NCBI GenBank assembly: GCA_963845755.1
Contig: CAWJTV010000019.1
Coordinates: 256,001 to 320,000, forward strand
Direction of reading: 5' to 3'
DNA length: 64,000 bases
DNA from: an uncultured Planctomycetota bacterium
GTDB lineage: Bacteria > Planctomycetota > Planctomycetia > Isosphaerales > Isosphaeraceae
In this document: positions 3,601-25,278 of the stretch, one piece after another
Layout: every line of letters starts with the position of its first letter
Numbering within the stretch: the stretch's first letter is position 1
The notes under the pieces: model-generated
What the model was told of the DNA's origin: nothing
The model's input: the letters and a program-made list of their open reading frames with translations, nothing else
The model's database searches: none
Position numbers and translations under genes: made by a program

Positions 3601-4456
3601 CACGCCCACACCCACCCCGACGCCCACGCCAACACCAACACCAACACCAACACCGACTCCGACACCCACGCCCACTCCGACACCCACGCCCACTCCGACA
3701 CCCACCCCGACGCCCGCACCGCCCCGAACTCCCTTGCCAACGGCACCGTTGAACCTGGCGGCGGTCGCGGTGGGAGCCTCTGAGATCGACCTCTCCTGGC
3801 TGCCCTCACTGGGAGCGTCGCAATATCTGGTGGAGCGAAGTGTTGATGGAGGCCCGTGGAGCGTGATCGCGAGTGGGATCCTGGCACCGCTGTATGACGA
3901 CTCGGGGCTCGCTCCGGCGACGGCCTACGCGTACTGCATCGTGGCGGCTTCCAGAGCCGGTGACTCGCCGGCCAGCGCACCGGCCGTCGCGGCGACGCCT
4001 CCCCTGGCGGACGCATTGTCGATCCAGCCCCTGAGCATCGTGGCGACTCGGAAACTGCCGTTCACCGGGACCGTGGCGACCTTCACCGATGCGAACGTCT
4101 TGACCTCATCGGGGAGCTTCGTGGCGATCATCCACTGGGGAGACGGTCATGTCAGCCGGGGGACGATTACCGGTGACGACGGCGCGTTCTCGGTGATCGC
4201 CCGGCACACGTATTCCGCCCTCGGCCATGATGTGGTCCGGGTGACCGTGACGATGTCCGCGCCGGCCACAGCCGGCGCCTCGTCGGCGTCAACCGCAATC
4301 GTCGTCACCCGCGCGCGGAACCTGAACCGGAAGATCGCGCGGCTCCATCCCAGCCCGGTGAAAAGTCGTCGCATCCGGGCAGTCGGCGATCACCCCATGC
4401 GGACATCCCTCCCGCGGCCTCCGCACCGATCGGCACCAGGACGCCCGAGTTCCTGA
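638..4456 (+). CDS. Large secreted/surface protein: planctomycete N-terminal motif, probable parallel beta-helix region, Pro-Thr linker, FN3 and PKD/Ig-like domains
   Basis: Intact 1272-aa ORF; 'RRRSLGFVELESRCLL' N-terminus; repeated 'I.GN.I' motifs; (PT)n linker; FN3-like 'IDLSW...Y.VERS...Y.D.GL.P.T.Y.Y'; 'IHWGDG' PKD-like motif. Confidence 0.8.
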   Translation: MKLFNNPRRPRRRSLGFVELESRCLLTATVTCLGQDGQDLVGPDASQGPDGIQDLHLHFADLSGTVSSIAIQAPGGFQWATAPDPTGAALAEYFPSATTGQGDLYLNPQVKSDQPPPGGSLPLGGSTGSLIELTSGASLTVTIDYQGQGTPDVVTVPVSNLVSATDPMPATPVPADVVGTFQVADDGQDGTGLSYEQGFVHLVVTAPSGVAFDSNTFGQVAWGLSDTVGNAWDSTTASLGHNHLYASLRANSTNVVDLYFPPDGNDAPPSGSNDPTMLLQVGLPDDGQVYATAFAGADWDPTLMTAAPNAQAPPTPPTTEAQLRADLMSTSPEYDTIDLPANQTIAITQPLEITHTVTIVGNGATLFFQQGDTAAWPADASGAIYVNASPYSNIQLTLENFTIRFDMSVPIRWSNPAGTQPALWDPENDPGGITKAVIDTRDSNTNLNRDLLTLTGMTVYGPPAFDGSAYSNLQAQLVQSGDTSDEYVGEQDIDLIRANDADLGTIADSTFQGGSIEVFGGPWTITGNTILGSTADTYSPGAFALHGSDDAVVEDNQVSQSDPAGRVFRLIVLATGGTGSTIADNTFGGGAGQVGNELSYNSSIGQFDGINDPEVILAESTYGVLFEGRPGAISADGRLLVLPNLRVSAVPASTGPGMVVSILSGVDGDGTSDMTLAGQWFPVAQQVSLVGNTIELLMANPLPAPPPGGYYVVEVTGGYVNDTIEGNTIDLTGKSSTAIKLDGEDYGIRIVGNHIIGGTTYDDGYNGTAIFLGAAIGSAPSGSGAFPLSWGWTALPSLGAVIEGNVIQDSLGGIILGVEHSDDYWTAQVGTTSETGRVFLTATVTGNTFEYDAAFLNAWAAAYVAERNDPAQDSTPPTVTIGSGWSAEAPGQYAGPRFPWTVGGALTVNGSDQPIFVDPIENVVTVQGNSVEDISANGTTTAQTGPSGQVYEGIVNGVTVAPTLTPQTYNNEPYYPFNLDNLDIAAAITPTPTPTPTPTPTPTPTPTPTPTPTPTPTPTPTPTPTPAPPRTPLPTAPLNLAAVAVGASEIDLSWLPSLGASQYLVERSVDGGPWSVIASGILAPLYDDSGLAPATAYAYCIVAASRAGDSPASAPAVAATPPLADALSIQPLSIVATRKLPFTGTVATFTDANVLTSSGSFVAIIHWGDGHVSRGTITGDDGAFSVIARHTYSALGHDVVRVTVTMSAPATAGASSASTAIVVTRARNLNRKIARLHPSPVKSRRIRAVGDHPMRTSLPRPPHRSAPGRPSS
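3601..3716 (+). repeat. Coding hexamer repeat encoding the Pro-Thr linker
   Basis: acgccc/acacca/actccg units read directly. Confidence 0.9.
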
Positions 4457-4599: not shown

Positions 4600-4615
4600 A
4601 CCCGTTTCGTAAACC

Positions 4616-7600
4616 CTTCCAATCCCCGCGGAATCAGGGGTCACTTAGATCTGGTCGCCGACGACGAGGGCCGGCTCTGCCCGTTTCAATCCCCGCGGAA
4701 TCAGGGGTCACTTAGATCCGTTCAAATCGCAGGGGCGAGGGCCGAACACCAGAAGTTTCAATCCCCGCTGAATCAGGGGTCACTTAGATCTGGGCTACGG
4801 TGGATTTCGTTGTCCTGGCAGCAGTCTCAATCCCCGCTGAATCAGGGGTCACTTAGATCCAGAAAGAAGGGACCATGAACAACGATCCCAGTTTCAATCC
4901 CCGCTGAATCAGGGGTCACTTAGATCAGTGACCTGTCCCCGAGCTCAAAATCCGCGTCTTGAGTTTCAATCCCCGCTGAATCAGGGGTCACTTAGATCGA
5001 TATGGTCCGATGTCGAGCGCTCTGCGCAACACCGTTTCAATCCCCGCTGAATCAGGGGTCACTTAGATCTCGAAGGGGCGGTGGGAGAAGCAGAGAATTA
5101 GATGTGTTTCAATCCCCGCTGAATCAGGGGTCACTTAGATCCTCACCAGGGCTCATCCCGGTCCTTCAACGCTAGTTTCAATCCCCGCTGAATCAGGGGT
5201 CACTTAGATCCAACGATGCGAACAAAGCCAAGTTGGCTGGCTTGTTTCAATCCCCGCTGAATCAGGGGTCACTTAGATCTTCGAAGTGCACAACACAACG
5301 CTTCTCGCCTTGGTTTCAATCCCCGCTGAATCAGGGGTCACTTAGATCATGCCCACGCCGACGACCGCGGCCGGCCGCAAGTTTCAATCCCCGCTGAATC
5401 AGGGGTCACTTAGATCTGGGCCTGCCGGCGGTCGCCGCGTTGGTGCGGTTGGTTTCAATCCCCGCTGAATCAGGGGTCACTTAGATCACGTCCCAGCCAT
5501 GGCCGAGCGCAAGCACATGTTTCAATCCCCGCTGAATCAGGGGTCACTTAGATCGAATACCAGGACTCGGAATTCGAGCTGCACGCGGAGTTTCAATCCC
5601 CGCTGAATCAGGGGTCACTTAGATCCATTATTCTCCTGATTCTGAGATACGGCGCGTCCGTTTCAATCCCCGCTGAATCAGGGGTCACTTAGATCGAATC
5701 CTCGACATCCAGCCGGCCGCGGGGTTCGTTTCAATCCCCGCTGAATCAGGGGTCACTTAGATCATTGTCAACTCCAACGTTCGTTCTGCAAAGGAATCGT
5801 TTCAATCCCCGCTGAATCAGGGGTCACTTAGATCTCGCTGCCGCCGCCAATGCTGCTCAAGCGGAGAGGAAGTTTCAATCCCCGCTGAATCAGGGGTCAC
5901 TTAGATCACAGGTCGAACCGGGTGTGTTGCCCGGTCGAATCGGTTTCAATCCCCGCTGAATCAGGGGTCACTTAGATCGATGCGACGTCTCAAGAGAATG
6001 GGCTGGCGCGCCATGTTTCAATCCCCGCTGAATCAGGGATCACTTAGATCTGGATGTACCGATCTATCGCCGGTGCATGATGTTTCAATCCCCGCTGAAT
6101 CAGGGGTCACTTAGATCTGGTTCACCCGCGCCATCTCCGAAGCCCTAAAAGTTTCAATCCCCGCTGAATCAGGGGTCACTTAGATCGACGAACCGGACGA
6201 TGCCGATAAGCTCGCTGGTTTCAATCCCCGCTGAATCAGGGGTCACTTAGATCGGAAGTTCCTCAACATGAGCACCTGGACTTCTGCGTTTCAATCCCCG
6301 CTGAATCAGGGGTCACTTAGATCAAACGCAGACTTTGTACGGAAACAAAGCTCCTGGTGGTTTCAATCCCCGCTGAATCAGGGGTCACTTAGATCGGCGA
6401 CTTCGCCACGCTGACCGGCGGCGACTAGTTTCAATCCCCGCTGAATCAGGGGTCACTTAGATCTGGATCGACGCCTGCAGAATGAACCCACCTCGTTTCA
6501 ATCCCCGCTGAATCAGGGGTCACTTAGATCAACATGCAGAGGCTCTCGACAGAATTCGGGCCAAATGGTTTCAATCCCCGCTGAATCAGGGGTCACTTAG
6601 ATCGCACTGCGGGCAATATGTTCGGGCTTTTAGTTTCAATCCCCGCTGAATCAGGGGTCACTTAGATCGCTGCGCCTCACCGAGTCTCACCGGGACGATA
6701 TGTTTCAATCCCCGCTGAATCAGGGGTCACTTAGATCAGTACAGCGAGCGGCCAGTTTGCTTCACGGCTGTTTCAATCCCCGCTGAATCAGGGGTCACTT
6801 AGATCGTCCGACGTCTACTGGATCACGCTGACGGAGGACGGTTTCAATCCCCGCTGAATCAGGGGTCACTTAGATCGAGAACCGCCAAGTTCGACGCTGC
6901 GCTTCGCGTTTCAATCCCCGCTGAATCAGGGGTCACTTAGATCAACAACTGTTTTGGTTCGTCGTGAAGATGCTCGTTTCAATCCCCGCTGAATCAGGGG
7001 TCACTTAGATCGGTATACCATAAGGTTCAACCGACCCAAACTAGTTTCAATCCCCGCTGAATCAGGGGTCACTTAGATCGCAAAGGGAGATGTCGTCATC
7101 ATCCCGCCCACGGCGTTTCAATCCCCGCTGAATCAGGGGTCACTTAGATCAATATTAGAATAATTGTAGGTAGAGAAGAGTGTTTCAATCCCCGCTGAAT
7201 CAGGGGTCACTTAGATCTTCGGTCCTCGCTTTGATGAGCTGCCTTTCTGTTTCAATCCCCGCTGAATCAGGGGTCACTTAGATCGAAGGCACTCGAAGAG
7301 AGCGCTAGCTCCTTGGGAGAGGAGGTTTCAATCCCCGCTGAATCAGGGGTCACTTAGATCCCATTCCAGACAGACCGCTTCCGCAGGCAACAGTTTCAAT
7401 CCCCGCTGAATCAGGGGTCACTTAGATCCACGGCGCTCAACGAGGCCAAGCCGCGCGTCAAGCCGAGTTTCAATCCCCGCTGAATCAGGGGTCACTTAGA
7501 TCAAGAGCGCTGGCATTGCCTTCGCTCCCTTCGTTTCAATCCCCGCTGAATCAGGGGTCACTTAGATCTCCAGCTGCTGCACGTCTCCGCCGCCATGAAG

Positions 7601-8325
7601 TTTCAATCCCCGCTGAATCAGGGGTCACTTAGATCAAAAGCGCTTCTTCTACTTTCTTTTTTTTTCTGTCGTTTCAATCCCCGCTGAATCAGGGGTCACT
7701 TAGATCACAAACTGTAGCAGCATCAGCACAGTGAGTGCCTTGTTTCAATCCCCGCTGAATCAGGGGTCACTTAGATCATCTGTCGGGCGTGTCGCGATGG
7801 AAAATGAAGTTTCAATCCCCGCTGAATCAGGGGTCACTTAGATCAAGTGCCTTTCATCGAGATCATACTCACTTGTTTCAATCCCCGCTGAATCAGGGGT
7901 CACTTAGATCACCGAACTGGTCCAGGACGGTATGTCCTACGCGTTTCAATCCCCGCTGAATCAGGGGTCACTTAGATCGGAAGTGCCAGGGCTCATCGAA
8001 ACGGCTCTTGTTTCAATCCCCGCTGAATCAGGGGTCACTTAGATCTTTACCGGGAGTGGACCGACAAGGATAGGCCGCACGTTTCAATCCCCGCTGAATC
8101 AGGGGTCACTTAGATCGGGTCGAGAGTAGCCAGTCGGTCGGTGTGGTTGGCGGTTTCAATCCCCGCTGAATCAGGGGTCACTTAGATCCTAAGTTCTACA
8201 AGGTCATCAAGGACCTCAACGTTTCAATCCCCGCTGAATCAGGGGTCACTTAGATCGCAAAGAAATGTGTAGTAGTTAAAAGTCGAGTAGTTTCAATCCC
8301 CGCTGAATCAGGGGTCACTTAGATC
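4616..8325 (-). CRISPR. CRISPR array, 54 repeats / 53 spacers (manual count); 36-bp repeat GATCTAAGTGACCCCTGATTCAGCGGGGATTGAAAC in transcribed orientation
   Basis: Repeats read directly; spacers ~29-40 nt. The ATTGAAAC 3' end on the minus strand, degenerate copies at the left (4616, 4683, 4824) and cas2 to the right all indicate minus-strand transcription. Confidence 0.98.
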
Positions 8326-8700
8326 TGCACATCCGGCCACATGTAATCTGGAAATCGTCCCAGACTGTCCTGGCATATCGACTTCCGATCAATCCGGGAT
8401 GCACGTGCCGACAAGTTAACGCGCAGTATCCCACTTGGCCACCCCTCACGTGGTTTTTTTCGGCTTGCGTTTCCGCCGGCGCCAACCAAAGCGAGAGGCG
8501 CAAACGGCGTCCCCGCGTCCCCGAGAGGACCCAGAGCAAGACCGAGGCCGCAAACCGCGGCCAGCCGCCCTGCTGTAGCGACCCGCTCATTCGCGCCCGT
8601 GGGGCCAACCTACGCCCCGGCAGGAAACGAACGGGAGTCGCGGGGGAGCGATGAACCCCCGTGCGGTATACGCTGGAACTCCCTCGGAAGTGCGAACCAT
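8326..8700 (-). promoter_or_regulatory. CRISPR leader region
   Basis: Non-coding gap between the cas2 stop and the conserved end of the array. Confidence 0.7.
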
Positions 8701-8973
8701 TCACACCACGATCACGGCATCCTCGGCGACCGGATCGCGCTGCCAGGAGATGCGTCGTTTGGGGAATCGGCGGTCGATGGGGAAAAGATCGAACGCATCG
8801 GTCTTGGCCAGCAGCAGGCCCACGCGGAACCGCAGTTCGTCGAGGTCCTCCGGCTCGACCTCGATCTCGAAGACGCTCCGCTGGACGCGGCGGCCATACT
8901 CCAGGAGGATCTCGGCGACGCGGGCCCGCCGGGAATCGCGGGTGACATCGTAGGCGGCGACGTAAAGGCTCAT
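8701..8973 (-). CDS. cas2: CRISPR-associated endoribonuclease Cas2
   Basis: 'YVAAYDVTRDSRRARVAEILLEYGRRVQRSVFE' canonical Cas2 motifs. Confidence 0.95.
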   Translation of the reverse strand: MSLYVAAYDVTRDSRRARVAEILLEYGRRVQRSVFEIEVEPEDLDELRFRVGLLLAKTDAFDLFPIDRRFPKRRISWQRDPVAEDAVIVV

Positions 8974-11738
8974 GGGTGTTCGAACGGCTCCCAGGGTGAT
9001 TCGGGGTCGACCAACCGGCGTCTCAAACCGCGGGCCGTGGCGAGAAACTGCGCCAGCCAGGGCCGCGGCTCGGTCTGGCCTTTGCCGATGACGCCCGTCT
9101 TCCAGCTCCTCTGCATCAGCGCGTGAAACGTCTTCGCGGCGTGGTGCTCCAGTACCAGTGGATAAGGACCGTCAAAGCGCGGGACGAACTGGGACGGCTT
9201 CAAAATGCGCGTGGCCAGGATCACGGCCCGCTCTACCAGATGACGGAACGGCTCCTGAAGGTCGGCGGCGAGCGAGGCATAACGGCCGTCACTGGCGTGC
9301 AGGAACCCGACCGCGGGCGAAAGTCCCGCCGCCCGGCAGGCGGCGATCGCATGGCGGTAGAGCATCGTATGGCCCATGTTCAGCATCACGTTGACCGGGT
9401 CGCCGGCATCGGGCGCACGCGCAGATGAAACGAAAACCCCCTGCCGAGAAGCGAGGGGAGCCGCCGATACCACGCCGCCGCGCCCGACCCTTCATGCCCG
9501 CGCAGCGCGTCGAGCGACCCGGCCGTCATGCATTCCTCCGCCAGCTCGCGGAGCCGGACGGCGGTCGGTTCGCCGGGCTCGGTCGCGGCTTCCAGCAGGG
9601 CTGCGAAGTTCCGCAGCTTGGCCCGAACCAGCGGACGCGCCAGGAGCAGGGCGCATCGCCGGGTCGGCGGCAGCCAGGCATTGCAGCAAGATCGCCTCGG
9701 GATCGTCGGGTGGCTCGCTCACCAGATCGCCGATGGGCCAGCCCGCGTCGGAGAGCAGATGAACCGGAATCTTGCTGCGAAGGAGCTTGCCGGGAGCATC
9801 CGGGCTCCAGCCGGCCGGCCCCAGCACGATCAGCCGCTCCAGCGTGCTCAACGGGACGTCCTTGTCGTCGCTCTCGTCGGGGCCGCGAATCTTGAGTGAG
9901 TCGCCCACCACGTCCAGAAGCGTGATCCCCGGCCCAGCCACGATCACTCCCGCACCCACCTGGTGGGGCGTCTCCTGGGGCAACGCGAGCGCGAGCACCG
10001 ACGGCGTTCGATCAGCGTCCTTCCAGCCCAGCTCCTGCACCCGTCGCGGACCCGATGGCCCCGCGTACTGCCATCGCTCCTCATGACGAAATCGGTACCC
10101 CAGGAAGTCGAACGGCTCGCGGACGTCGATCACGGCGGAATCGGCGTTGAGCTGAAGCAGGAGATCGGCGGCCAGCTCCTGCGCGCGGACGTGCAGCCGC
10201 TCGGCATCGCCGCGTCGGCGCGTGAAGATCAGGAAGTCGTCCGCGTACCGGACCAGCCGTCCTCCCTCGTTCTCGATCGCTTCGTCGAACTGGTCGAGCA
10301 GCAGGTTTCCCAGCAGCGGAGAAAGGGGCGCGCCGGTGGGTATCCCCACGTCGCCCGGCAGCTCGGCCTCGACGAAGGACCACACCGCCGCCGTCGCTCG
10401 GTCGTCGCCGAGACAGGCTTCCAGCCGGTCGCGCGCGAGCTGACGCGGAACGCGATCGAAGAAACGGTCGAAGTCGGCGCGCACCGCAAAATGCCAGCCG
10501 TCGTTGACCAGGCGCTCGATGCGACGCGCCGCCGACGCGCGATTCAGTCCCCGACGCCAGGCGAATGAGGAGGTCTCGAAGAGTCGGTCCAGGGCCGGAC
10601 CCAGCCGCGCCAGGATCAATCGCTGCAAAGCCCGGTCCTCGACCGGCGGGATGCGCAGCTCGCGCGACGCGCCGTCAGCCGATCGCAAGACCACGCGATG
10701 AGCCTGGCCCGGCTGGTACGTGCCGGCCCTCAATTCTTCGGCGGCACGCCGGAATGCCTCGGGCTCGAGGTCATGCTCCGCGGCGGAATGTGAGATGGCC
10801 GCGGGCGAGAGGCAGAGATCCAGCAAGGGCCTGGCCCGCTGGCACTCGGTCGGATCGGGGCCAAGCTCCTCGATGCGGTAGCGACCAAAGCCGAAGTGCA
10901 GGTTCTTGCCGATGCGGGTGTACTGTCCCCACATCAGCGCCGCGACGGCGACCGGGTCGTGCACGGCGACGGTGATCCGCCCGAGCGCGCCCCGAGCGAC
11001 TTCCGCTCGTCGCGCCGCCCGTACTCGAGGTCGAGCCACGTCAGACGATTCGCCAGCAGCGTGATGGCCGAATCGTCAAAGGGGGCCTCGGCACCAGTAT
11101 CGGTATCGGTGTTATGATCGCGGCGACGTAGCCCGATGGCCGCGAGCCGCTTCTGGACGGTACGAAGGAACTGCCCGACGTGCAGGCCGGCGGCATCGGC
11201 GTAGCGATGTCCGGACTGCGCTTCGGAGCCGGGCCGTTCGAGCCGGAGCGGGCTGTGGAATCGAAGCGTCAGCGACTGGCCGGCCATGGCGTACAGCCGT
11301 TCGAGCTCCCGGTCGATCGTATCCAGACCGAGTGCCGCAAACGGTTCGCCCGGTGCCAGAGATCGTTTCGCGACGAGGTCTTGCACGTTGACGAGGTCGA
11401 AATTGCCTCCCAGCGCGACGGGCTTTCGCGGAGCGTCGTGCCCCACCCTGGCGAGCCCCTCGGAGATCGCGCAACCGCCGCAGCGCCATCGCGGGGTCGA
11501 ACTCGATGAGCGTGGCGCCAAAGGCAAAAAGATCGCCGGGCTCGTACCGATCGCGACACTGCTCCGGGGCATCCAGGAGCAATCCCTCCGGCATGTGCGA
11601 CGGCCGATCGGCGTCGTTCCCCCGAGCGGCATCACACAAGAGTGCGTAAAGGATGGCGTTCTGGTGACTGTGCAGAGTCCACGCCGATCGCGCGCGAAGC
11701 GTCCAGCGGACGCGGAAGAACGGTGTCTCGATTGACAT
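8970..11738 (-). CDS. cas1: Cas6-reverse transcriptase-Cas1 fusion (several frameshifts)
   Basis: N-terminal Cas6 with G-loop 'GQYTRIGKNLHFGFGRY'. RT motifs 'LRIPPVEDRALQ', 'ADFDRFFD', 'GIPTGAPLSPLLGN', 'RYADDF'. Cas1 motifs 'DPVNVMLNMGH', 'GFLH', 'LAADLQEPFR'. The Cas6 C-terminus, RT and Cas1 N-terminus share one frame (9492-11039). Confidence 0.88.
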
Positions 11739-11964
11739 CGATCCAGCTCCCGGATCATGAGGGGATTGGGAGAAGCGGGGCCGTCGGCTCCGACACGGGT
11801 CCCCAGCGTCGCCGGAATCCGTAATCGGGCAAGGAGCCGCCGTACCAGCCTTCCGGTCGAGCGATCAGGAAACGGTTTTGGGGCCGGTCCCCTGGGATCC
11901 GCGCGAACCGATCCGCGACGACGGCGCTCCGGTCGCAAGGGAACACGACGACAGTCAACCGCAC
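11735..11964 (-). CDS. Possible small degenerate Cas2-like protein (needs one frameshift)
   Basis: 'VRLTVVVF..DRSAVVADRFARIPGDRPQNRFLI' weakly resembles the Cas2 beta-alpha-'G.R.Q..F' pattern; lies directly upstream of the fusion gene. Confidence 0.25.
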
Positions 11965-12066
11965 ACCGGGGAGGATCCGCGCGGTCTCCCGGGCGCTCTC
12001 AGCCGGGGCTGTCGGTTCGTTCGGCAGTGATCCCCTGGGCAGAGCGGTTGGCCACTGGGAGTTTGG

Positions 12067-12680
12067 TCAGGCGATCAAATCCGTCGCAAGTTCCTGAGCC
12101 TGTTCGCGATCGTTTCTTGGTTGGCCAGACAGTTCGGAGAGCCCGTGGGCCACTTTCTTCGTGAACGACACCGTGATCCGATACCACGAGTAGCCTGCAA
12201 GCGCCGTAAGTAATACCCCCAAGAGGCCGACGAGCCAGGCCAACACGGCCTGGGAGACCCCGAACTCCGGCGCCACTGCCTGCCGATAAACAGCTCGCCG
12301 CACAGGGTGATGAGTGTGAAATTGAACACGGACGATCGGCAGATCCTTACCCTCGTCCTCATGTAATCGAACTGGCGGGACAGCCATTCGTCCCGCTTAC
12401 GGCCGAGGAGACGCGTCACGGTCGGGCCGTCGTCATGCATATATCTGCGTCGGATGCGTCAACTAATGGGATGGAGCAGGTCGTCAGCCAGGTTGTCGAC
12501 GAATACGCCAGCCGGGTAAAGAATCGGCAGCAGGGCTGCCGCGATGGCCACCTCCCACCCTTTGAGTTCCTTCAGCGCGGCGGGATCGAACCCGACGAAG
12601 CTCGCGACGAGCAGGCACAGCCAGATGCCCACCTGAACGCCGGAGATCAGCAAATCCACGAAGAGCAATGTCGTGTTCAT
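12067..12680 (-). CDS. CRISPR-associated ~200-aa membrane protein with about 4 TM helices (two frameshifts)
   Basis: Joined ORFs 12459-12680, 12075-12440 and 12067-12387: 'MNTTLLFVDLLISGVQVGIWLCLLV', 'LLPILYPAGVFVD', 'DYMRTRVRICRSSVFNFTLITL', 'LAWLVGLLGVLLTALAGYSWYR'. Start overlaps the NTPase stop. Confidence 0.7.
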
Positions 12681-13301
12681 GATTCTTGAAGGGCTGCAAC
12701 GCCTTGCGGGTTGACGGCGGGCTCCGGGGCGCTCGCCAGTCGGACCAGAAGCCGGGCTAACTCCCGGACCATCGGACGTTCGTGGACGGGCTCACCGCGT
12801 TCCAAACGATGGATCGAGCCGGTCAGGAGACCCGTGTCCTTCCAACGAACGTCATCTTCAATGCCCCCGTAGTCGCTCCAGATTTCGGCCACAACCGTCA
12901 GACCCACTCGAGCCGCGAACTCACGCCACTCGTCAAACGCACCGCGGTCGCCAGCCAGGAGTATGGCGTGGGTCGCCCCGGCGCTGATCTTCTCATTCTT
13001 CTCGTCGGGCACGCCCCCGATATCAACCAGCGTCAGTGGCTCCGCACAGTTTCTTACCGAATTGGCGACGAGTTGTACGAACTCGGGAGTGAATCGCGCT
13101 ATAGGCTTTCTTGTATGCCTGGGCCCTCGCGGAATCACGTCGAACGGTTTCCTGATACCAGGCTCCCTCACCGTCGGGACAGGCGGTGATGACATAGCAA
13201 TAGGGGGCGCCGGATATGTGCGACACCGCGTCCTTCAAACCCTGCCGCAGGCAAGACTTGCCCGACTGCGGTGGGCCGCACAAGACCACTTTGATGCTCA
13301 T
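12677..13301 (-). CDS. Csx3-associated P-loop NTPase (frameshifted)
   Basis: Walker A 'VVLCGPPQSGKS', 'ACPDGEG.W', Walker B-like 'LTLVDIGG', 'ATHAILL'; follows csx3. Confidence 0.8.
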
Positions 13302-13355
13302 CGAGCACTCTCCGAACTGTCACAATCCCAAGGAAAACCCCTCGGAGATGATCGA

Positions 13356-13671
13356 TTACTCCAGTTGCTGCCCCAGTTCGAAACTCGGGGTCATGGGTGA
13401 TACACACGACGTAGCCGGGGGAGAGTTTTGGATCGCGCCAGGCCAGCGCCTCGAACTTATGAGCGACCTCATGTGCAAGCACCACGGCGACGAGCACCGA
13501 CACCGGCCCGTTGAACTTGACGAGCTTCCCACCGGTCAGGTTCAGCTCTCTGATGGCCGCCACTGCATCGCGAATGATCTCCGGGTTCTCCGCCGGGGCA
13601 CCGAATGAGGTGCGCAGTTCTACAACTCCATGGGATTCTTCTATGATCTCGACCGTATAATGCTTCGCCAC
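13356..13671 (-). CDS. csx3: Csx3/Crn3-family ring nuclease, copy 2 (one indel near the C-terminus)
   Basis: 'GGKLVKFNGPVSVLVAVVLAHEVAHKF.ALAW.DPKL..GYVVCITHDP'; GTG start behind a GGAGGG RBS. Confidence 0.8.
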
Positions 13672-14111
13672 GTGCCCCTCCCATTGGTTCATCGCTCGTT
13701 GCGACAGCGCCGAAGCGATCGCACTCTACTGCGTCAGATCTCCACAAGCCCGCGGGCCTCTCACCAGCGGAAAGCCCGGGGGGCGGCGGACACTCAAGGT
13801 CGGCGGCCCGCGGCCCTGCCCATCGAGTTCGGAACCGAAGAGTATTCGCCGGGCTCCAACGAAGATTCAGGCTCCGCGCCGCCTGGGCAACTGGGTCAGC
13901 GGCCCAGCCCGCCGACCGCACACCTGATTGATCAGCATAAGCCACACCAGGGCGGATCCGCTACCGTGTGGCGTTCGAGAAAGACCTGGAGCACATTCAC
14001 GCTTGGATTGAGCACGCGGACTTGAGAAGCCGGTGCCGACAGATCGCGATCCCCCGACACTGGCACAGGACTGATCTCTTGGAGAGGCATGATTGACGAG
14101 ATCGGCGTACA

Positions 14112-14459
14112 TCAGGATGTGCCCATTGACTCACGCTCGCAACTCGCTTGTCCTCCGGTCGTTGGGCCAGGCCCCGCGGGGGCGGGAGTGGCCGGCGGCG
14201 TTACATCGATGACCTGGCCCTCATGCCACTCAGGGCGATGGGACGCCACGACGACGGCCCCCAGGCGGGGATCGTAGACGGCGATCGCCCCGGCCGGCGA
14301 GCCATGCAGGCGGTGAAAAGCGATGCCATAACGCCAGATCGGCGCGCGGCCCTCGATGACGACCAAGGCGCCGCGCGGGATCGTGGGCAACGACGGCAGT
14401 GGCTCCTCGGGCCGGATCGGCGCGGTGACGCCGATGGAGTAGAAGACGACATCAGTCAT
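14112..14459 (-). CDS. csx3: Csx3/Crn3-family ring nuclease, copy 1
   Basis: 'LVVIEGRAPIWRYG..FH.LH....IAVYDPRLGAVVVASH' classic Csx3 signature. Confidence 0.9.
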   Translation of the reverse strand: MTDVVFYSIGVTAPIRPEEPLPSLPTIPRGALVVIEGRAPIWRYGIAFHRLHGSPAGAIAVYDPRLGAVVVASHRPEWHEGQVIDVTPPATPAPAGPGPTTGGQASCERESMGTS

Positions 14460-14619
14460 CAAAGATGTCCCCGTTGTGATCCCGGACGATGGTCCTTGCC
14501 GCCATTTGGAGACCTCTGGTTTCGACTTTGGGTGATGGGCTAAGGCTATCTCCGACATTGGTGGGACGAGGATTCCAACTTGCTGCACGCTGGCCGCGCT
14601 CGCAACCGAGGACGCGGAG

Positions 14620-14837
14620 GTTTCAACGCCCTCGGCGCGGGCGAGACCTGTTAGGGTAGCAGCCAGTGCCATGCATGTCCCTTGCGAGACGTTTCAATCC
14701 CCGCTGAATCAGGGGTCACTTCGATCCGCAGCCCGAGACGAAAACAGCTCTCTCCTGTGTTTCTAATCCCCGCCGAATCAGGGGTCACTTTGATGTCGCA
14801 GCCAGTGCTATGCATGTCCCTTGCGAGTCGTTTCAAT
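14620..14837 (-). CRISPR. Degenerate hybrid mini-array: one heterologous repeat, two cognate repeats, one partial repeat, three spacers
   Basis: Cognate repeats at 14691-14726 and 14759-14795; GTTTCAAT remnant at 14830; a different 37-nt GTTTCAAC-starting hairpin unit at 14620-14656. Confidence 0.8.
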
Positions 14838-14839
14838 GT

Positions 14840-15094
14840 TCTTGGACCGGACGAGACACATAAATCTCGTGTCCTCCTCTTGAATTTACTCGGAAACCGA
14901 GGATAATTCAAGTATCGCGGGCGTAGAATTGGAGGGAGGGCAGAGTCTCTCCATATGTAGTGCTCGGTTGACCATTACGGAACGTGGTTTCATGACCTGT
15001 TATCATCGATGATTTCAAAAGCAGCCAACGTCATTCATGTCACCTTGGAGAGACTTCTCCAGAGCGATCCACTAATCCTATCTGGAGGAATTCC
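14840..15094. promoter_or_regulatory. AT-richer divergent promoter region between the two Cas arms
   Basis: Non-coding, lower GC; genes diverge on either side; GGAGG RBS before the ATG at 15095. Confidence 0.5.
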
Positions 15095-15440
15095 ATGACG
15101 ACCGTCTCACGATTCCAAATGGACCTGACTTCCGCCGAGCTGGGACTCATCGAGCGATGGATGCGCTTCGCAGGTTTCCGAACGAAGAAGGAGTTCCTGC
15201 TCAATGCGTTCACGCTGTTCCAGTGGGCTGCGAAGCAGGTCTTACTCGGCGCACGATCCTCGCCGTGAACGAATCCACAGGAGAAATCCGTCACCTGGAG
15301 ATGCCAGGCGCTGGCTGCGATCGGGGAAAGCTATCCACCGGGCACCCTCCTGACACCCGAGGAGACCCGACGGCGGGCTGCCCAACCGGGACAGCCTTTG
15401 GAAGAAGTCCTTTCGAAGCTTCGAAGAGGAGACCAAGATG
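15095..15440 (+). CDS. Putative antitoxin / ribbon-helix-helix-like protein (frameshifted, end approximate)
   Basis: Manual translation MTTVSRFQMDLTSAELGLIERWMRFAGFRTKKEFLLNAFTLFQWAAKQ...LLTPEETRRRAAQPGQPLEEVLSKL. Confidence 0.5.
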
Positions 15441-15744
15441 CCCAGGTCGCCTGTGGAGTGGACGCCGAAGGCGGTGGATGATCTCGCGAACATACAACGA
15501 TCATCCGGATTTGCACAACGAGATCACTTCCGTCGCGCAGGAGGTTGATAGCCAGCTCGCGAAAAACCCGCGACAATTTGGCGAGTGCCATCAGGATCCC
15601 GATGATCCTGACGGCACTGAAATGGGGGTTGCATTGGAACCCGTCAGCGCCGAGTTGCTGGTCCGCATCGAGTTCGAACTTGGGGACATCGTCAAAGTCG
15701 TCTCATTCAAGCCAGTGAAAAGGCGGAGGAGGAAGGCGGACTGA
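15438..15744 (+). CDS. Putative RelE/ParE-like toxin (one frameshift)
   Basis: MPRSPVEWTPKAVDDLA...EITSVAQEVDSQLAKNPRQFGE...LLVRIEFELGDIVKVVSF fits the RelE/ParE secondary-structure pattern. Confidence 0.6.
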
Positions 15745-15975: not shown

Positions 15976-17416
15976 ATGGGCCGCACCATTCGCGCCTCTT
16001 GCCCGGAATCCGAGGCCCCTGCTCTGGTAAAGCCTCCCGAGGGAGCCTGGAAGATTGGGGTTCGTCTGGTCACACCGTTGTTCGGAGGGGGACCTCGCCG
16101 GGCAGTACGACGTTGGCACACCGTTTGCCCCCAAGGCGATTCGCGGCCAGCTTCGGTTCTGGTGGCGCTCGTCGCGGGGTGGGCGCTTCCTCCCGACCCC
16201 GATCGATCTGCGGTTGAACTCATGAGCCTGCGGGAGACGGAGATCTTCGGCAGCGCCGAGTTGCCCAGCCCGTTCGATCTGATCGTCAGCGATGTGCGGC
16301 TCAACGGAGAGCGCCGCCTCGATGCGAAAGAGGAATACGAATTTGGGAGGTTGGGACCAGAGGCTTACGCGCTTTTCTCTGCGAAACAGAACAAGGTCGG
16401 GGCGATTGTGAAGGAAGGAGCGACGTTCACCCTCGAAGTGCGTTTGTCGTCGGCCCGGGCGTTCTCGCGAAGGCAGTCCATCGAACAACAGCGGCGTGAG
16501 GAATCGACGAAAACTGCTTCCGATGGCAAGCGCCGACCACTCGATTGCCTGGAACAAGAAGCTGTCCGGGATCATCTCCGCGCCGCGCCTGTGGGCATGG
16601 CTCAATCTCGGCGGCCTCGGCGCACGTACACGGCGGGGTGTCGGTTCCGTCACCACGGACAAGCAGGAATTCTCCTTCCTCGCGGACGGCAAGCTACGAC
16701 ATGCCCTCCCGGCGACGATCGTCTTGGCCGATCCTAAGCAGGGGACGACTGCGGCCCTGGCGTCGGGCAGCCGCAGTGGGAGTCTATCAGAGATTCCGCC
16801 AGGGATTCCGAAGGCCTCCCGGAAAGAAGGGCCCCGCACCGGGTCGCTCGAAGTGGCCTGAGCCCGACTCGCTGCGCAAATCGCAGGATGTGCCTTGGAG
16901 CCGCGCCAAGGCGACCCGCGCATCATTCCACGCCGGTCGTTCCCACTGAGACGATCCCTGGCTTCCCTCGCGCGGCCTTGGGCCTGCCAATGATCTTCCA
17001 TTTCGCCCACGGCGACGGGCCTGGCAAGGATCAGCCGCCCAAATCCTTCAAGGATCCAGCGGACGGATCTGAATCCCAAGATTGTTGGGTCGGATGCAAA
17101 ATCCCGCAGGGGAGCGGATGGCGAGCCCCGTCCTCACTCGTGCGGTGTGGATCGAAGGCCAATGCGGTGCCCGCGATCATCGTGTTGCGACATCCCCCGG
17201 CGTTGGACCGCTGATTTTTCCATTGGAACCACACCTGAACATCAAGGGCGTCAATGCCAAGGGGAACGCGAGGACAAATCGCGAGACGTCGCTCACGATC
17301 GGATCGTGAACCCGGCCTTCGCGACGCTCGAACCGATGCAGAAGCAAAGCAACGCACGGGACGCGCTCCTGGTCTTTGTCCGTGCGAACGGTTTCCGGGA
17401 CTTCCAAGGAAAATGA
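15976..17416 (+). CDS. cmr1: Type III-B RAMP Cmr1 (multiple frameshifts)
   Basis: 'LVTPLFGGG', 'ETEIFGS', 'WAWLNLGGLGARTRRGVGS', 'FPRAALGLP', 'RMASPV'. Confidence 0.85.
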
Positions 17417-19672
17417 GCCTGGCCATGGAATACCTGATGGCGGTCTCGATCGGCCCGGTGCAGGGATTCATCGCGGCGGCGAGACGGACCCGAGACTTCT
17501 GGATGGCTTCCACCATCCTGTCCGAGTGCGACAAAGCGGCCGCGCGCTGGATCGTCGAGCAGCCGCCCGGATCGGCGGATTCCCCCGATTAGAGCGGTTG
17601 ATCTTTCCGTCGCCACGCAACAGGTGGACGAGCCCAGCGAAAAGGATGCTCTCGCCGGGGCAGTGCCTCGACCTCAAGGCTTGGGATTTCACCGAGGATA
17701 ACACGTGCTCGCCATCGGAGCGACTTCAATGTTACGAACGTCTTGCTGTTCCGATTCCAGACCGAAGATCCCGGGGGAGGTTGTCGCTCTAATCCGCGAT
17801 GATGTGGTCGGACGATGGAGTTGGTTTGTCAAGCGGACTCTGGACCGCAAGGTCAGGGTCCTCGATGGGCCCCGGGCCGGCGAGGAATTGCCCGTCGAGA
17901 CCGACCTCTGGGATGCCGCCTTGTCGGGCCAACGCGAAGCCGCGAGAGACGTCTTTCAGAATTTCGCCGCCGGGGTCCCTATTGATGCCGCTCTCGGCAA
18001 GTACGGGGACGCGAGGAATCGCGTAATGAGGCTCCTAAATGGACGTAAGTCGTGTTGCGACTTCAAACCCTGGAAAGGGGTTGCCGGCCGGCCGAAATCC
18101 TCCTTGGACGGGGTCGCGCGAATCCGTCCTGAAGGAGCCTGTGGATCGCGTATTACCCTTGGACATTCGGCCGGGCGAACAGCTCGATCTGGTGGGGCTG
18201 GTCAAGCGACTCGAGTTCGGCAACGATGCGATCCGGTTCCCTTCCGTGTCGCGCCTGGCTGCCGACCCATGGATTCGGGCCGCATGCACGGACCCTCAGG
18301 CCAGAAAGAGCCTTGAGAAGATCGAGGCGATTTGCGAGGAACTTCGTGGGCTCAACCTGATCCGAAAGCGAATGTACTTTCCTAACGCGGCCAAGGAGGA
18401 CGATCCGCCAAAGTTTCCTTGGTGGGACGATTTCCCTTTCGAAGGATCTCCGTCGTCGTTCATTTCCCGCCACCGGGAACTGATGCCGGCAACATCCGGC
18501 ATTCGAGCCGGACTTCAAACCACGACCGGGTGAGGACCCGGTAGCGACCCGAAAGCGGGAGGAGCCGGTCGGATCACTGGAGAACCCGGTCCTCTCAGAT
18601 CGAGCAGAAGCTTGACTTGGTGGAAGATTTGGTAAGATGCATGAAGCCCTCTCTCTGCGAACCATCTCCTTATTTCGCCATCGTCGTGGCCGACGGCGAC
18701 GGCATGGGGCGGACGATCTCGTCCCTTGCATCGCTGGACGACCCCGATATTCACCGAGCCTTCTCGCTGGCCCAGTCTGTCTTCGACGACGAGGTGCGCT
18801 CCCACGATCGATGGGAGATCCCCTGCGGAAATCCGCGATCCGGGGTCCCGAGGGTGATTCGCGAGTGGTCGGATTTCATGGCGCCACCGTCTTCGCCTCC
18901 CGGTGACGACGTCCTGTGTTTTCTCCCAATCGACCAGTGCCTCGTCGGGGCGAGGATGATGCACGACCTGTTCGATCAGATCCTGCGCCGAGAGTTCGAA
19001 AAGTCGCCTTCAGGTGTGACCGCTCTCCGGCATCTTGAGGACCAGGGACCGATGCCGACTCTCTCCGTCGGCATCGCCATCGGACACTTCATGGAACCGC
19101 TCGAAGACCTCCTCGCTTTCGCGAAAGCCGCGGAGTATCGTGCGAAGAACCCGACAAAAGAGGACGTGCCTTTGCCGCCAAGTCTGCGCAACGGTCTGGC
19201 TCTCGCAATCCATCCTCGAGGCGGGGCGGCCTTTACCGTGCGCGATAACTGGTCCGGAGTCGATTCCCCCGGTTTCCAGCCCCTGGATCGGCGACTGCTC
19301 GAGTGGGCAGAATTACACCAGGAGAAAGTTCTCCCCACCAAAGCGGCCTATGATTTGCATTTGGCCTCGCGTTTTTACACGAACTGGAAGTCCAACACTG
19401 ATGCCGACAAGGAAGCCCTCCGGCGAGCCATCCGGTCGAATTGCCTCCGGTACTCGCGCGGGAGGCGGTTCCGCCGGTAGGGAGGATGACAGGAGGAAGG
19501 TGCGCGACCTAATCCAGAACGTCCGGAACACCTCAGATCTGGAGAGCCTGGCCCATGAGCTGATTGCCGGCCAGTGGATCGGTGATGCGTCCGGCAGGCA
19601 TCAGTCCCGCGGCCTGACGGCAATCAGCCAGGAGAACCGTCTCAACAGCACGCCCCCGGGGGAGTCGTCTGA
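17413..19672 (+). CDS. cas10: Cas10/Cmr2 without an N-terminal HD domain (multiple frameshifts, end approximate)
   Basis: 'SIGPVQGFIAAARRTRDFWMASTILSE', 'PKSSLDG', 'GEQLDLVGLVKR', 'YFAIVVADGDGMG', 'GDDVL', 'TLSVGIAIGH'. Confidence 0.9.
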
Positions 19673-20960
19673 TGTCGGCATCGAGCATCTACCTGTCACT
19701 GACTCCCCGCGATCCGCTGATCCTCGGGATGGGCGACCGTTCTCCGCCGGGTACCGGATGAAGTCGCTGGACTGGTTCTATCCGTCCGTGTTGGCGGGCT
19801 CGTTGCGGACCTTACTCGGCCAGAAACAGGGGGGGTTTCCGCCACAAGGTTCCGACGAGTATAGCCGGCTCGTCCACTCGCTCAAACAGGTCGAGTGTGC
19901 CGGGCCTTTTCCTTGCGTCACGAGGGATGGAAAGCCTCCAGAACTCTATTCTCCACGTCCGGGGGATTTTGTGGTACGGAAGAAATGTGGGAGGCTGCAG
20001 GGCCTCCCGGTCCGACCGTGGGATCTGGACCAGGAGTGTGGTGGATGCGATCTACCGAAAGGCCTCTCGCCTGTGATTCTGAATCCCGAGGTCGTGAAGG
20101 GCGAGTTCAAACCTTCGCCGGTGCCGGCATTCTGGTCGCGGTCGCAAATCACTTCGTGGCTGACAGACGCCACCGGGACTTCCTTTCGGATGAGAACTCA
20201 ATGGGGGGATGGAGATCTGGACGCTCCGTGCAAAGAGGAACGGACTCATGTCAAAATGAGTTATGATCTGGCGCCGGGCAAGATGGCAACCTCTTTCAGA
20301 CGACGGGCCTCGTCCTCGAGGAACTTCCTCGTCCTGATCAAGAGGAAGAATGCCTAAAGACTGCTCAATCCATCATCTTGGTGTCTCGGCTCGTCTGCGG
20401 CCCTGAAAGCCCGTTCCAGACGATCGGTGCCTCCCTCAATGACTCCTCTCCCTTCGGTGGAGAACGGCGTCTCATGCACTGGCAGGCGGGAGGCGCCCCC
20501 GCCGTCGTGGGATTGCCCTAAGGCGGTGAGGGATGCCCTCAATACTCTCGAGCAGGAAGATCAACCGTGTTCGTTCGTATGGTCCTTGCCACGCCGGCAT
20601 TGTTCCGGCGCGGGTGGTGTCCGGGCTCGATGGATAGAAAACACTCACCGGCGAGGTGCCGGGAACGGGTGTGAGCGTCCGACTCATCGGGGCTGCAACG
20701 GAACGGTGGAGGCCGGTCTCGGGTTGGTCATACGAAACGGCTCTTGCGCCCAAGCCCGTCCGTCGCGTCGTTCCCGCCGGAGGTGTCTTTTTCTTTGAGG
20801 TCACGCCGGGCAGCCCTCGTCCGCCGTCTCGCTGGCGGATCACTGGCTGAGATCGGTCTGCGACGATGAACAGGATCAACGCGATGGCTTCGGCCTCGCT
20901 CTTTGGGGAGTCTGGAAACCGTTTAAAGACACGCACACTTTTATAGGATCAGCCCGATGA
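19672..20960 (+). CDS. cmr3: Type III-B RAMP Cmr3 (frameshifted)
   Basis: 'LTPRDPLI..DGRPF', 'YPSVLAGSLRT', 'PVSGWSY....PKPVRRVVPAGGVFFF', 'DGFGLALWG'. Confidence 0.88.
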
Positions 20961-21934
20961 GCACGGCAATGTCACCGACGGTGGGACAAGTGGCGCGACA
21001 CCGTGCAAGGTCCCTACTGGATTCACGCGCTGACGCCGCTCCATGTCGGCTCCGGTCGCGGGATTGGGTTCATCGACCTGCCGATCATGCGCAGAAAGCC
21101 ACCGAGTATCCCTTCGTCCCGGGATCGGCCGTGAAGGGCGTCCTGGCGGATCATCATGGCGCCGATGATGAGGCCCGCGACCAATCGAACAAGCAGAATG
21201 GCAGGTTCAAGCCGGACCTGAAACTGGCGTTCGGGTCGGGGGGAGATGAGTTCGCCAACTCCGGAGCAATCGTTTTCACCGACGCGCGACTCGTGTGTCT
21301 CCCGGTTCGCAGCCTGTATGGAACATTCGCCTGGTGCACGTCGAACCTCATCCTGAAGCGGCTCCAACGCGACCTCGTCCGTTGTCACCATTCCTGGAGA
21401 CCGCTGCCACCTCAGGCGACAAAGATCGACCGAATTGTCGTCACGAACCTATCGACCTCGGCGTTGAAGGATCAGGATCAGCGGGCCTTCTTCGAGGACC
21501 TCGATTTCACCATGGAGACCAGTGAAGCCGCGGAGGAGTGGGCGAAGTCGCTGGCCGAGTCGGTGTTTGCTGATCCCGACTGGCAGAAGCTTTTCCTCGA
21601 TCGATTCGCCGTCGTTCACGACGACGTCTTTACGTTCCTCTGCGAGACGGCCACGCAAGTGGACGCGCGCGTGAAGATCGACGACGACACCAAGACCGTC
21701 GCGAAAGGCCAACTCTGGTACGAGGAGTCGCTGCCGGCGGAATCGATCCTGTCTGGTATCGCCTGGTGCGGGCCGGTATTCGGTAACAATGGGAACCGAA
21801 ACGACCCAGAGAAACGGCGCCAACTCATGAAGGACTTCTGCGGCGGTTCTCACTATCTGCAACTTGGCGGCAAGGCGACGGTTGGTCGAGGCCAGGTGCG
21901 GTTGACTTTCTCGGACGGAGCCTCGGCGGGCTGA
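20957..21934 (+). CDS. cmr4: Type III-B RAMP Cmr4 (compensating frameshifts near the N-terminus)
   Basis: 'PFVPGSAVKGVL', 'FTDARLVCLPVRSL', 'LWYEESLPAESIL', 'LQLGGKATVGRG'; alternative frame gives 'LTPLHVGSGRGIGFIDLPI'. Confidence 0.93.
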   Translation: MSTAMSPTVGQVARHRARSLLDSRADAAPCRLRSRDWVHRPADHAQKATEYPFVPGSAVKGVLADHHGADDEARDQSNKQNGRFKPDLKLAFGSGGDEFANSGAIVFTDARLVCLPVRSLYGTFAWCTSNLILKRLQRDLVRCHHSWRPLPPQATKIDRIVVTNLSTSALKDQDQRAFFEDLDFTMETSEAAEEWAKSLAESVFADPDWQKLFLDRFAVVHDDVFTFLCETATQVDARVKIDDDTKTVAKGQLWYEESLPAESILSGIAWCGPVFGNNGNRNDPEKRRQLMKDFCGGSHYLQLGGKATVGRGQVRLTFSDGASAG

Positions 21935-21994
21935 GGACTCTTCCTTCCTCCAAGGCCCGCGAGGGCCAACCTCTTCTTGAATGACAAGAAATCT

Positions 21995-22418
21995 ATGAGT
22001 ACCACATCCGAAAGCAAGCCCATCCGAACCCGCCAGCAGACGATGGCCCAGGCTGCGTTCGAACACGTCGATCGTCGGCACGGCGCACGGATCGACATCC
22101 CCAGGGAATCCGCTCCTTCGCGCCTCTCGTTCCCATCATTGATCCAGGCTGCCGGGCTGTGTCAAGCCGTTGCATTCGCCCAGGCAAAGGGAGGAAGGAA
22201 CAAGGAGGTCTTGGACGACGTAGTTGCGACGATCAAGGAATCGAAGAGTTATGAGGGAGATTTGAGGAAGACATGCACAGAAAGGCGTCGGCGAGTACCT
22301 TCGTTTGACGCGTCTGGCTCTCCAGGCCGCGACGTGGGTCAAACGATACGTTCGAGGCGCTTGACAGAGAGACGAATGGGCCACCCAGAACCAACTTGGC
22401 GAGCACCCTGAACACCAG

Positions 22419-22431
<13 letters not shown>
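21995..22431 (+). CDS. cmr5: Type III-B small subunit Cmr5 (frameshifted, end approximate)
   Basis: 'RTRQQTMAQAAF', 'FPSLIQAAGLCQAVAF', alternative frame 'ATWVKRY'; lies between cmr4 and cmr6. Confidence 0.82.
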
Positions 22432-23690
<1,259 letters not shown>

Positions 23691-24871: not shown

Positions 24872-25278
24872 TCTGACGCCAAGCCCCCCCAAATCGACCT
24901 TGGTTGGGCCGGACGGCACAAGCGATTCGTTCTCAGGGGCGGCCGTTGAAAAAACGTCCGGGCACGCGCATAACCGCGCCAACGATAAAGCGCCCGTGGG
25001 TCAGGTCCTGTTTTACGTGATGCATGATCACTACGTGAAGTCCGTGCTCCATCGGCAGCTTGTCGGCGATCAGGGTCGATTGTTGTCTCCAACCCCAGAC
25101 CCATCCCAGGATTTCCGGAGCCAAGTTGCCAAATCTGCAAAAGTATCCATTAATCAAGGATGTCGGGACTTCCCGGCGGCGTTCGAGGTGCGCAGGGTGT
25201 TGAGGAAGGCGGGTGATTGCATGGGGGGACGAATTGGAATTGGGTCGCGGACGACTCGGCCAAACTCGGAAACGAAAA

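Follow-up and report, generated by a model that had tools for sequence, protein, structure and literature searches.

A nested mini-array with two repeat types between the halves of a planctomycete type III-B CRISPR locus, and its possible origin by recombination

Results

Layout of the mini-array

The window analysed here, a stretch of 64,000 nucleotides (nt) of genomic DNA from an uncultured planctomycete of the Isosphaeraceae (contig CAWJTV010000019.1, positions 256,001 to 320,000 of the forward strand), contains a type III-B CRISPR locus. Between the two halves of this locus, in the 635-bp gap that separates csx3 (14112-14459, minus strand) from the first open reading frame (ORF) of the plus strand at 15095, lies a mini-array with the nested order U2–A'–R2–B–R1–A–U1 on the minus strand, where R denotes cognate repeats, U units of a foreign type, and A, A' and B spacers. 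We give an even chance to the reading that this element is a composite orphan mini-array which was built by recombination, is mostly decaying, retains one intact CRISPR RNA (crRNA) unit and is carried in the leader of csx3. What can be taken as established is that the units are nested, that U1 and U2 are homologous, that R1 carries a foreign variant and that the surrounding module has been swapped in a sister species. The mini-array is probably transcribed as the csx3 leader, and the intact guide unit R1–A may regulate the neighbouring operon; the reading itself assigns no dedicated function beyond the production of crRNA-A.

A sequence-only reading of this stretch had pointed to a 34-nt spacer present twice, and to a unit of another kind at its left end, and both observations hold. 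The spacer copies at 14657-14690 and 14796-14829 are identical at 31 of 34 positions, and the duplication also takes in the 8-nt handle and one more nucleotide, making 43 nt, 40 of them identical, a length near that of the 36-nt repeat. The unit at 14620-14656 reads as claimed on the minus strand, with 37 nt in register after spacer A and GTTGAAAC at its end. The rightmost GTTTCAAT (14830-14837), in contrast, does not belong to a truncated cognate repeat, as had been supposed, but forms U2 together with 14838-14857, and it is because U2 resembles U1 and not R that the layout is nested. If A'–R2–B–R1 is taken out, what remains is U2–A–U1, a simple unit of one spacer between two repeats, and the fact that A is directly duplicated on either side of R–B–R suggests an insertion. 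The inner units are those of a cognate array: 35 of the 36 positions of R1 agree with the window consensus, and R1 and R2 stand 32 nt apart in the orientation of the 54-repeat array. Apart from a third copy, A'', described below, the next best site for spacer A in the window matches at 21 of 34 positions, and nothing besides A' exceeds 24 of 34.

Table 1 Features of the mini-array and its surroundings (positions in the window)
Feature	Position	Strand	Remarks
U1, 37-nt pseudo-repeat after spacer A	14620..14656	-	sequence unique in the genome; homologue of U2
Spacer A, 34 nt	14657..14690	-	upstream R1 gives canonical ATTGAAAC handle; no derived change when polarised with A''
R1, cognate type III-B repeat, 36 nt	14691..14726	-	identical to the L135/L136 repeat
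Spacer B, 32 nt	14727..14758	-	
R2, degenerate cognate repeat, 37 nt	14759..14795	-	3 substitutions, plus 1 inserted nt by which the handle becomes ATTAGAAAC
Spacer A', 34 nt	14796..14829	-	copy of A with 3 derived substitutions
U2, second U-type pseudo-repeat	14830..14866	-	ends in ATTGAAAC (handle 14837-14830, 8 nt); core 14830-14857; 37-nt extent nominal
A'', third, diverged copy of spacer A	15019..15054	-	given plus-strand transcription, a candidate RNA target
U3, remnant after A''	14987..15018	-	TAACAGGTC and TGAAAC in common with U1; holds perfect palindrome ATCATCGATGAT
Long imperfect RNA hairpin, U1 core and csx3 leader	14592..14648	-	TTGAAAC in loop; predicted fold, -38.7 kcal/mol
Palindromic promoter-like region	14880..14911	.	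-35/-10-like hexamers on each strand; both directions possible
Small ORF, ribbon-helix-helix lead	15095..15268	+	first ORF of the divergent operon running into cmr2-cmr6; Atlas 0.89
csx3, stand-alone, ring nuclease family	14112-14459	-	first gene downstream of the mini-array; Pfam 7.8e-22; TIGR02579 1.5e-19
Split Csx3-AAA gene	12677-13692	-	
Cas6/RT/Cas1 gene (RT, reverse transcriptase)	8970-11938	-	
cas2	8701-8973	-	
Main array, 54 repeats	~4604-8330	read on -	
cmr2 to cmr6	~17254-23690	+	domain searches

No origin for the spacers emerged. Spacers A and B had 0 protospacer matches in a phage collection and in viral contigs; in the genome itself, their own copies aside, they had only chance matches of 11-15 nt, with none beyond 15 nt for B; and none of the 155 spacers of five related arrays resembles either. 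Several other derivations of the layout were rejected. A duplicated leader of the main array was not found upstream, as the local alignment score of 8290-8720 with 14830-15100 (27) is at the level of shuffles (mean 27.6). Spacer B was rejected as an internally deleted A (835 and 486 of 2000 shuffles reach the score), and for a third block that would have decayed downstream of U1 and would end at GTCGAAAC (14519) no significant alignment was obtained. Retro-copying of the mature crRNA-A by RT was considered as the source of A' because the duplicate begins at the handle, but no full R stands upstream, as such copying would require, and at 43 nt the duplicate is also longer than the main-array spacers (29-37 nt). 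Spacer A is nearly a palindrome, being self-complementary at 18 of 24 positions around CATGCATG (14662-14685). The A copies were accordingly considered as operators of a ribbon-helix-helix (RHH) protein, but their exact spacer register favours a CRISPR origin.

Homology of the U-type units

In the 20 nt that precede the handle, U2 matches U1 in register at 14 positions and R at 4 (P = 1.6e-4 given base composition), and U1 matches R outside the handle at 7 of 20. The local alignment score of U1 with U2 was reached by 6 of 500 shuffles when the handle was included and by 4 of 1000 without it; the two agree at only 21 of 28 positions. As the last unit, with length and register kept, U1 recalls the degenerate terminal repeat of an ordinary array, but the terminal repeats of the resident array are only mildly changed, a decayed copy of R was rejected for U1 (792 of 1000 shuffles reach the score), and the homologous U2 stands at the opposite, promoter-proximal end, where decay of a terminal repeat would not account for it.

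One of the two explanations proposed in the sequence-only reading, a recombination scar between two CRISPR systems, is supported by several observations: two U-type units bracket the duplicated spacer around R–B–R, U2 is weakly like the genome's type I repeat, R1 carries a variant found in relatives, and the module has been replaced in the sister species. An array built on the 37-nt unit, for which that reading had suggested a search, was not found in this genome, which is 87.9% complete and whose one further true array, that of contig C36, is built from a repeat of another sequence. U2 aligns with this type I repeat at 17 of 22 positions with one 2-nt gap, a score reached by 1 of 1000 shuffles, whereas U1 shows no resemblance to it (488 of 1000). 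The four bases that stand before TTGAAAC in the repeats of C36 and of another genome, G026, are missing from both U1 and U2. U1 is unique in the assembly at up to 3 mismatches, and no unit of the U or R type had a match in the viral contigs. Its putative design, a GC stem followed by TTGAAAC, is common to array repeats in 7 of 60 other family genomes, none of which has the U1 sequence; one array of this design adjoins a csx3 homologue in G026, and a relationship of U1 with the G026 repeat was rejected (103 of 1000 shuffles reach the score).

Other candidate relatives of the U units were also set aside. A U-like site at C19:151233 is ordinary coding DNA, as are two of the single pattern matches in relatives (L152 and L153), a third (L151, in G018:C31) being a solo repeat, while a further match (L155, in G029:C20) is a small decaying array of another repeat with four units. 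L151 and L155 belong to the family of repeats with a GC stem and ATTGAAAC, and these relics indicate that orphan repeat remnants are common in this bacterial family.

The variant in R1 and the exchange of the effector module

R1 differs by 1 nt from the consensus of the window array and is identical to the repeats of two metagenome contigs with arrays of 39 and 22 copies (L135 and L136). It shares ...CACTTCGATC with the 35-copy array of G001, a genome of a sister species in the same genus, while 50 of the 54 resident repeats read ...CACTTAGATC and the remaining 4 have the same base at that position. Since R1 carries the variant of the relatives, it was not copied from the present array, and is either older than all 53 spacers of the resident array or was brought in with foreign DNA. 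Arrival with foreign DNA fits the comparison with G001, which aligns with the window (in stretches L010 and L011 of G001:C12) from the array, including cas2 and RT-cas1, to position 12053 and again from 23740; the 11.7 kb between, which hold the csx3 genes, the mini-array, the small ORFs and the cmr genes, are unrelated DNA in G001. The replacement in G001, of about 9.8 kb, has a weak RAMP match and indicates a swap of effector modules within one genus.

Csx3 proteins with 70-82% identity occur in other families of the class, where their genes come directly after coding DNA, and from this we conclude that csx3 has been separated in the window from the neighbour that it usually has upstream. 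Of 7 csx3 loci of relatives, 0 have a TTGAAAC unit in the 700 nt before the gene. The 635-bp intergenic region used as a query against 60 relatives retrieved repeats only, in 1 of 60, and three metagenome contigs with the R core carry arrays, leader and cas2/RT-cas1, all of them ending before csx3. The close Csx3 homologues (72-78% identity) in L138, L140 and L142 (G002, G026 and G309) end, or directly follow, a longer protein, the frame being open through both in G002 and G026. That protein has a C-terminal R-N-D-x-x-H-A-G-F-like motif, which we take to resemble the HEPN motif of Csx1/Csm6.

Uneven decay and a third copy of the spacer

The decay of the mini-array was polarised with A'' as the outgroup for the differences between A and A', and with the repeat of the relatives as the ancestral R. 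All derived changes fall on one side: A' has 3 substitutions, R2 has 3 substitutions and 1 insertion in the handle, and A and R1 have none, so that A'–R2 carries 7 changes in 71 positions against 0 in 70 for R1–A (Fisher P = 0.013). R1–A is also the only unit with both a canonical upstream cleavage hairpin and a canonical handle. It is intact, and by this pattern of changes looks constrained.

A'', in the same sense as A and 330 nt away from it, is part of the leader of the divergent RHH-like/cmr operon, with 40 nt separating it from the ATG at 15095. Without gaps (15019-15052) it matches A at 24 of 34 positions, and no second site of this kind exists in the window or elsewhere in the genome (28.5 million positions); with gaps there are 28 matches, 6 mismatches and two 1-nt insertions. 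The score of U3 with U1 was reached by 0 of 500 and 0 of 1000 shuffles, their common 9-mer being TAACAGGTC, and since the remnant that follows A'' resembles U1, A''–U3 is best seen as an old DNA duplicate of A–U1. The perfect 12-nt palindrome ATCATCGATGAT occupies 15002-15013 in the plus-strand leader and is a possible operator for the RHH-like protein. A toxin–antitoxin pair, which the sequence-only reading had placed nearby, could not be substantiated: the ORFs at 15095-15744 have no Pfam, NCBIfam or PADLOC match, and the only lead is the RHH one (Atlas 0.89).

CRISPR systems of types I, II and V are known to have crRNA-like regulators. In the main alternative, possible but rather unlikely, the mini-array is a type III counterpart of such a regulator, of the CreR/CreTA kind, in which crRNA-A guides the Cmr complex to A'' in the divergent leader. 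Cas6 would free crRNA-A from R1–A, and Cmr would bind A'' and cut or block the RHH-like/cmr mRNA, so that the effector operon, or else a toxin-like gene that heads it, would be expressed according to the level of working Cmr; mismatches and partial pairing of the handle would keep Cas10 signalling off, and csx3 could mop up cyclic oligoadenylate. The locus does offer a nearby leader site with partial complementarity on the correct strand, since A and A'' have the same sense and a minus-strand guide is therefore antisense to a plus-strand RNA, although A'' may be either a target or a mere paralogue. The rarity and nearness of A'' in the genome, its position between the promoter-like site at 14880-14907 and the ATG, and the lack of derived changes in R1–A all speak for such a role. 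In the duplex of a type III complex every sixth guide position is unpaired, and in the gapped alignment the 5-nt segments of guide A pair with A'' at 5/5, 5/5, 5/5, 4/5, 4/5 and 3/4 positions, with 3 of the 6 mismatches at every-sixth positions (P = 0.029). The ungapped alignment loses this periodicity (P = 0.14, not significant), and the two 1-nt bulges may not suit a type III duplex. The presence of U3, with the same 9-mer and TGAAAC as U1, makes A'' look like an old duplicate of A–U1 rather than a target that evolved on its own. The module is absent from the sister species and such units from the csx3 loci of the seven relatives, and self-targeting by type III systems is usually harmful.

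The arrangement of handle-only pseudo-repeats between divergent cas operons matches the design of CreR/CreA as described in the available portions of the literature on them (PMC12737573; 10.1101/2023.03.10.532045; PMC9458426). In both, degenerate repeats that keep the handle flank a spacer-like segment by the promoter of a cas operon, with a partial match close by; here U1 has GTTGAAAC at its end and U2 has ATTGAAAC, and neither core resembles R. A possible toxin–antitoxin-like gene at the target operon is a further point of likeness. According to the same portions, however, CreR and CreA bind DNA through Cascade or Cas12a and repress transcription, whereas a type III complex would act on RNA, and here two full cognate repeats are present as well. 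The consulted part of a 2025 review (PMC12737573) has CreR for type I and V-A only, and that of a survey of type III mini-arrays (Shmakov et al., 10.1101/2023.03.03.530964) reports that no targets were found. In the parts of the literature that were searched, no type III crRNA-like regulator is described, though one may still exist in print. Slightly more doubtful than the regulator as such is the full claim that this is the first crRNA-like autoregulatory circuit of type III, in which the R1–A guide has Cmr act on its own RHH-like/cmr leader at A'', every-sixth mismatches and partial handle pairing spare Cas10, and the nested layout records how the regulator was rebuilt when the repeat type changed.

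RNA structure and promoter-like sites

The CGCCC/GGGCG stem ascribed to the 37-nt unit proved, taken alone, no more stable than shuffles (z = -0.36). In a competing predicted hairpin of -38.7 kcal/mol, however, the 3' stem arm and core of U1 pair with the 25 nt of csx3 leader that follow, and in this context z is -3.32 on the minus strand, with 2 of 200 shuffles as stable, and -0.69 on the plus strand. U2 is predicted to pair with the sequence immediately upstream of it. A plus-strand promoter-like site, TTGAAT-16-GATAAT (14880-14907), scores 9 of 12; the minus-strand site, TTGAAT-17-TAAATT, was read by eye, scores 8 of 12 and is under the scan threshold, and it would place a start near 14876, about 10 nt before U2. 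The region 14880-14911 is nearly palindromic, centred on CTCGGAAACCGAG, and is another possible operator for the RHH-like protein.

These features would also suit a guide-free role, either in cis or through simple pairing of one RNA with another, which we regard as improbable. The hairpins of R1 and R2 would serve as Cas6 sites and that of U1 would cap the processed csx3 mRNA, whose stability would follow Cas6, or else A and A' would pair with A'' and couple the decay of the two mRNAs. The mini-array, which had been described as co-oriented with csx3 and just upstream of it, indeed lies between the promoter-like site and csx3 on the same strand, and two copies of A stand in one leader with one partly complementary copy in the other. 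The stability of the U1 hairpin on the transcribed strand only indicates selection at the RNA level. This explanation is weakened by the csx3 genes of relatives, which follow coding DNA and have no such leader, and by a minus-strand promoter under the scan threshold; it presumes expression and processing, and leaves unexplained both the duplication of spacer A and the retention of the handle by the pseudo-repeats.

The locus and its assembly

That the main array is read on the minus strand follows from three observations: its repeats then end in ATTGAAAC; the degenerate repeats occupy the end at 4604, opposite the leader on the cas2 side; and Rfam gives a single hint, for this strand, in a weak match to CRISPR-DR9 (E = 2.1). 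A search of the mini-array with Rfam gave nothing beyond this weak match, which is to R1. The minus-strand operon contains two genes of the csx3 family, the stand-alone csx3 and a Csx3-AAA fusion seen as two overlapping ORFs. The second true array of the genome (G000:C36:390435-403621, where G000 is this genome) has about 173 copies of its 37-nt repeat and lies downstream of the type I system to which it belongs, with Cas7, Cas3 HD, Cas1 and Cas2. Just beyond it is encoded a 1253-aa TIR–nSTAND1–TPR protein, and domains of planctomycete type adjoin this second CRISPR locus. Elsewhere in the window, coding DNA holds two repeats, one at 3582-3741 with an 18-nt period, for a Thr/Pro-rich stretch in a 1272-aa fn3/NosD-like protein, and a 42-nt tandem of 2.8 copies at 25272-25420.

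The assembly comprises 14.27 Mb in 49 contigs with 64% GC and is 87.9% complete, the window lying within a 431-kb contig. RT-cas1 is frameshifted both here (9380-9600) and in the homologous stretch of G001 (in L010), by 1-nt homopolymer indels that differ between the two genomes and lie within about 70 nt of each other; contig L135 has neither. Some further genes of the window appear truncated. The split genes are probably assembly errors, likely of the long-read type. As the indels differ between G000 and G001, the frameshifts in the cas genes are no proof of decay of the locus, and the split Cas10, Cmr3, Cmr6 and Csx3-AAA need not be pseudogenes; such homopolymer errors also call for caution over single-base indels in the alignments above. 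Cmr6 is divided into two ORFs of the same frame by a TGA at 23100-23102, near which the most Cmr6-like reading is in another frame, suggesting two close indels.

That the mini-array itself is an artefact, either a mis-join inside repeats or GC-rich DNA that ends in TTGAAAC by chance, we judge very improbable. In favour of an artefact are the indel errors just described, the public sequencing runs, which leave 14546-14690 and 14727-15600 without coverage, with the R1 repeat covered between them, and 18 further genome sites that match the U1 core at 21 or more of 28 positions. Nevertheless, A and A' differ at 3 positions and the R units at 4, unlike a collapsed or duplicated assembly, and the units keep exact register across 218 nt. 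TTGAAAC stands 30 nt after A and a U1-like core exactly before the other handle, a resemblance specific to position (P = 1.6e-4). Reads of run X1 are identical to the flanks at 13975-14125 and 14395-14545, and contigs of public reads also match 35 nt at 14409-14443, with below 90% identity.

Discussion

The origin of the mini-array can be considered as follows under the composite reading. The ancestor would have been a one-spacer unit, U2–A–U1, with pseudo-repeats of another type weakly like the type I repeat, and a cognate R unit would have entered inside spacer A, leaving A duplicated on both sides. One possibility is that a small R–A–R–B circle, as excised by repeat–repeat recombination, was integrated by a single crossover within the A of U2–A–U1. 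Another possibility is that one R was inserted at a staggered cut of about 36 nt and that B was then gained by ordinary acquisition. Integration by Cas1-Cas2 duplicates the repeat, and off-target integration can create new arrays; in the present case a direct duplication of 35-43 nt, against a repeat of 36 nt, flanks the insert, and R–B–R corresponds to one normal acquisition, but the duplicated segment is a spacer and the first piece inserted would be a whole repeat. Transcription would start from the promoter-like site about 10 nt upstream of U2, the mini-array forming the 5' leader of the csx3 accessory operon, and the Cas6 of the RT-Cas1 module would cleave R2 and R1. R1–A would then yield a crRNA with the canonical ATTGAAAC handle and B one with an altered handle, A' would have no upstream cleavage site, and U1 would be folded in the long hairpin that bounds the csx3 mRNA.

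Several points weigh against this composite origin. Neither route is free of difficulty: the crossover needs A in both an R-type and a U-type array, which nothing explains, and the staggered cut requires that an entire repeat went in as a spacer does, for which we know of no precedent. A U-type array, moreover, is missing where it might be sought. None was found in this genome when up to 3 mismatches were allowed; across 400 further genomes from the phylum, U1 has one single-copy match, with 3 mismatches, and no array; and a scan of genome contigs with a degenerate stem pattern, itself too loose, gave single copies only among the matches listed. The similarity of U2 to the type I repeat is one significant pair among 15 tested. 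A pure fossil is expected to decay evenly, yet R1–A is unchanged (0 of 70) beside A'–R2 (7 of 71), and the only notable genome match of A lies 330 nt off on the strand that an RNA guide needs. Transcription, use of the promoter and cleavage by Cas6 are predicted from the DNA.

According to the accessible text of Shmakov et al. (2023, bioRxiv 10.1101/2023.03.03.530964), mini-arrays occur near 10-14% of type III loci and were judged to be degraded, with no conservation and no targets. The present one is like them in comprising a few repeat-like units outside the main array near type III cas genes, in a position that is not kept in the nearest relative, with no external target found. In contrast with those described in that text, it lies between cas operons and not at a flank, nests two repeat types and has a duplicated spacer, together with an internal partial match on the right strand and one unit free of derived changes.

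Mini-arrays adjacent to type III loci have so far been dismissed as debris, as far as the available part of that survey goes (10.1101/2023.03.03.530964), and the locus described here provides a concrete test case, in which both the guide and, 330 nt off on the right strand, its partial target are defined. Even if it has no function, the nested layout records an exchange between two repeat families, and also the swapping of modules in a type III-B/RT-Cas1 locus, which bears on how arrays and effectors are paired anew in evolution.

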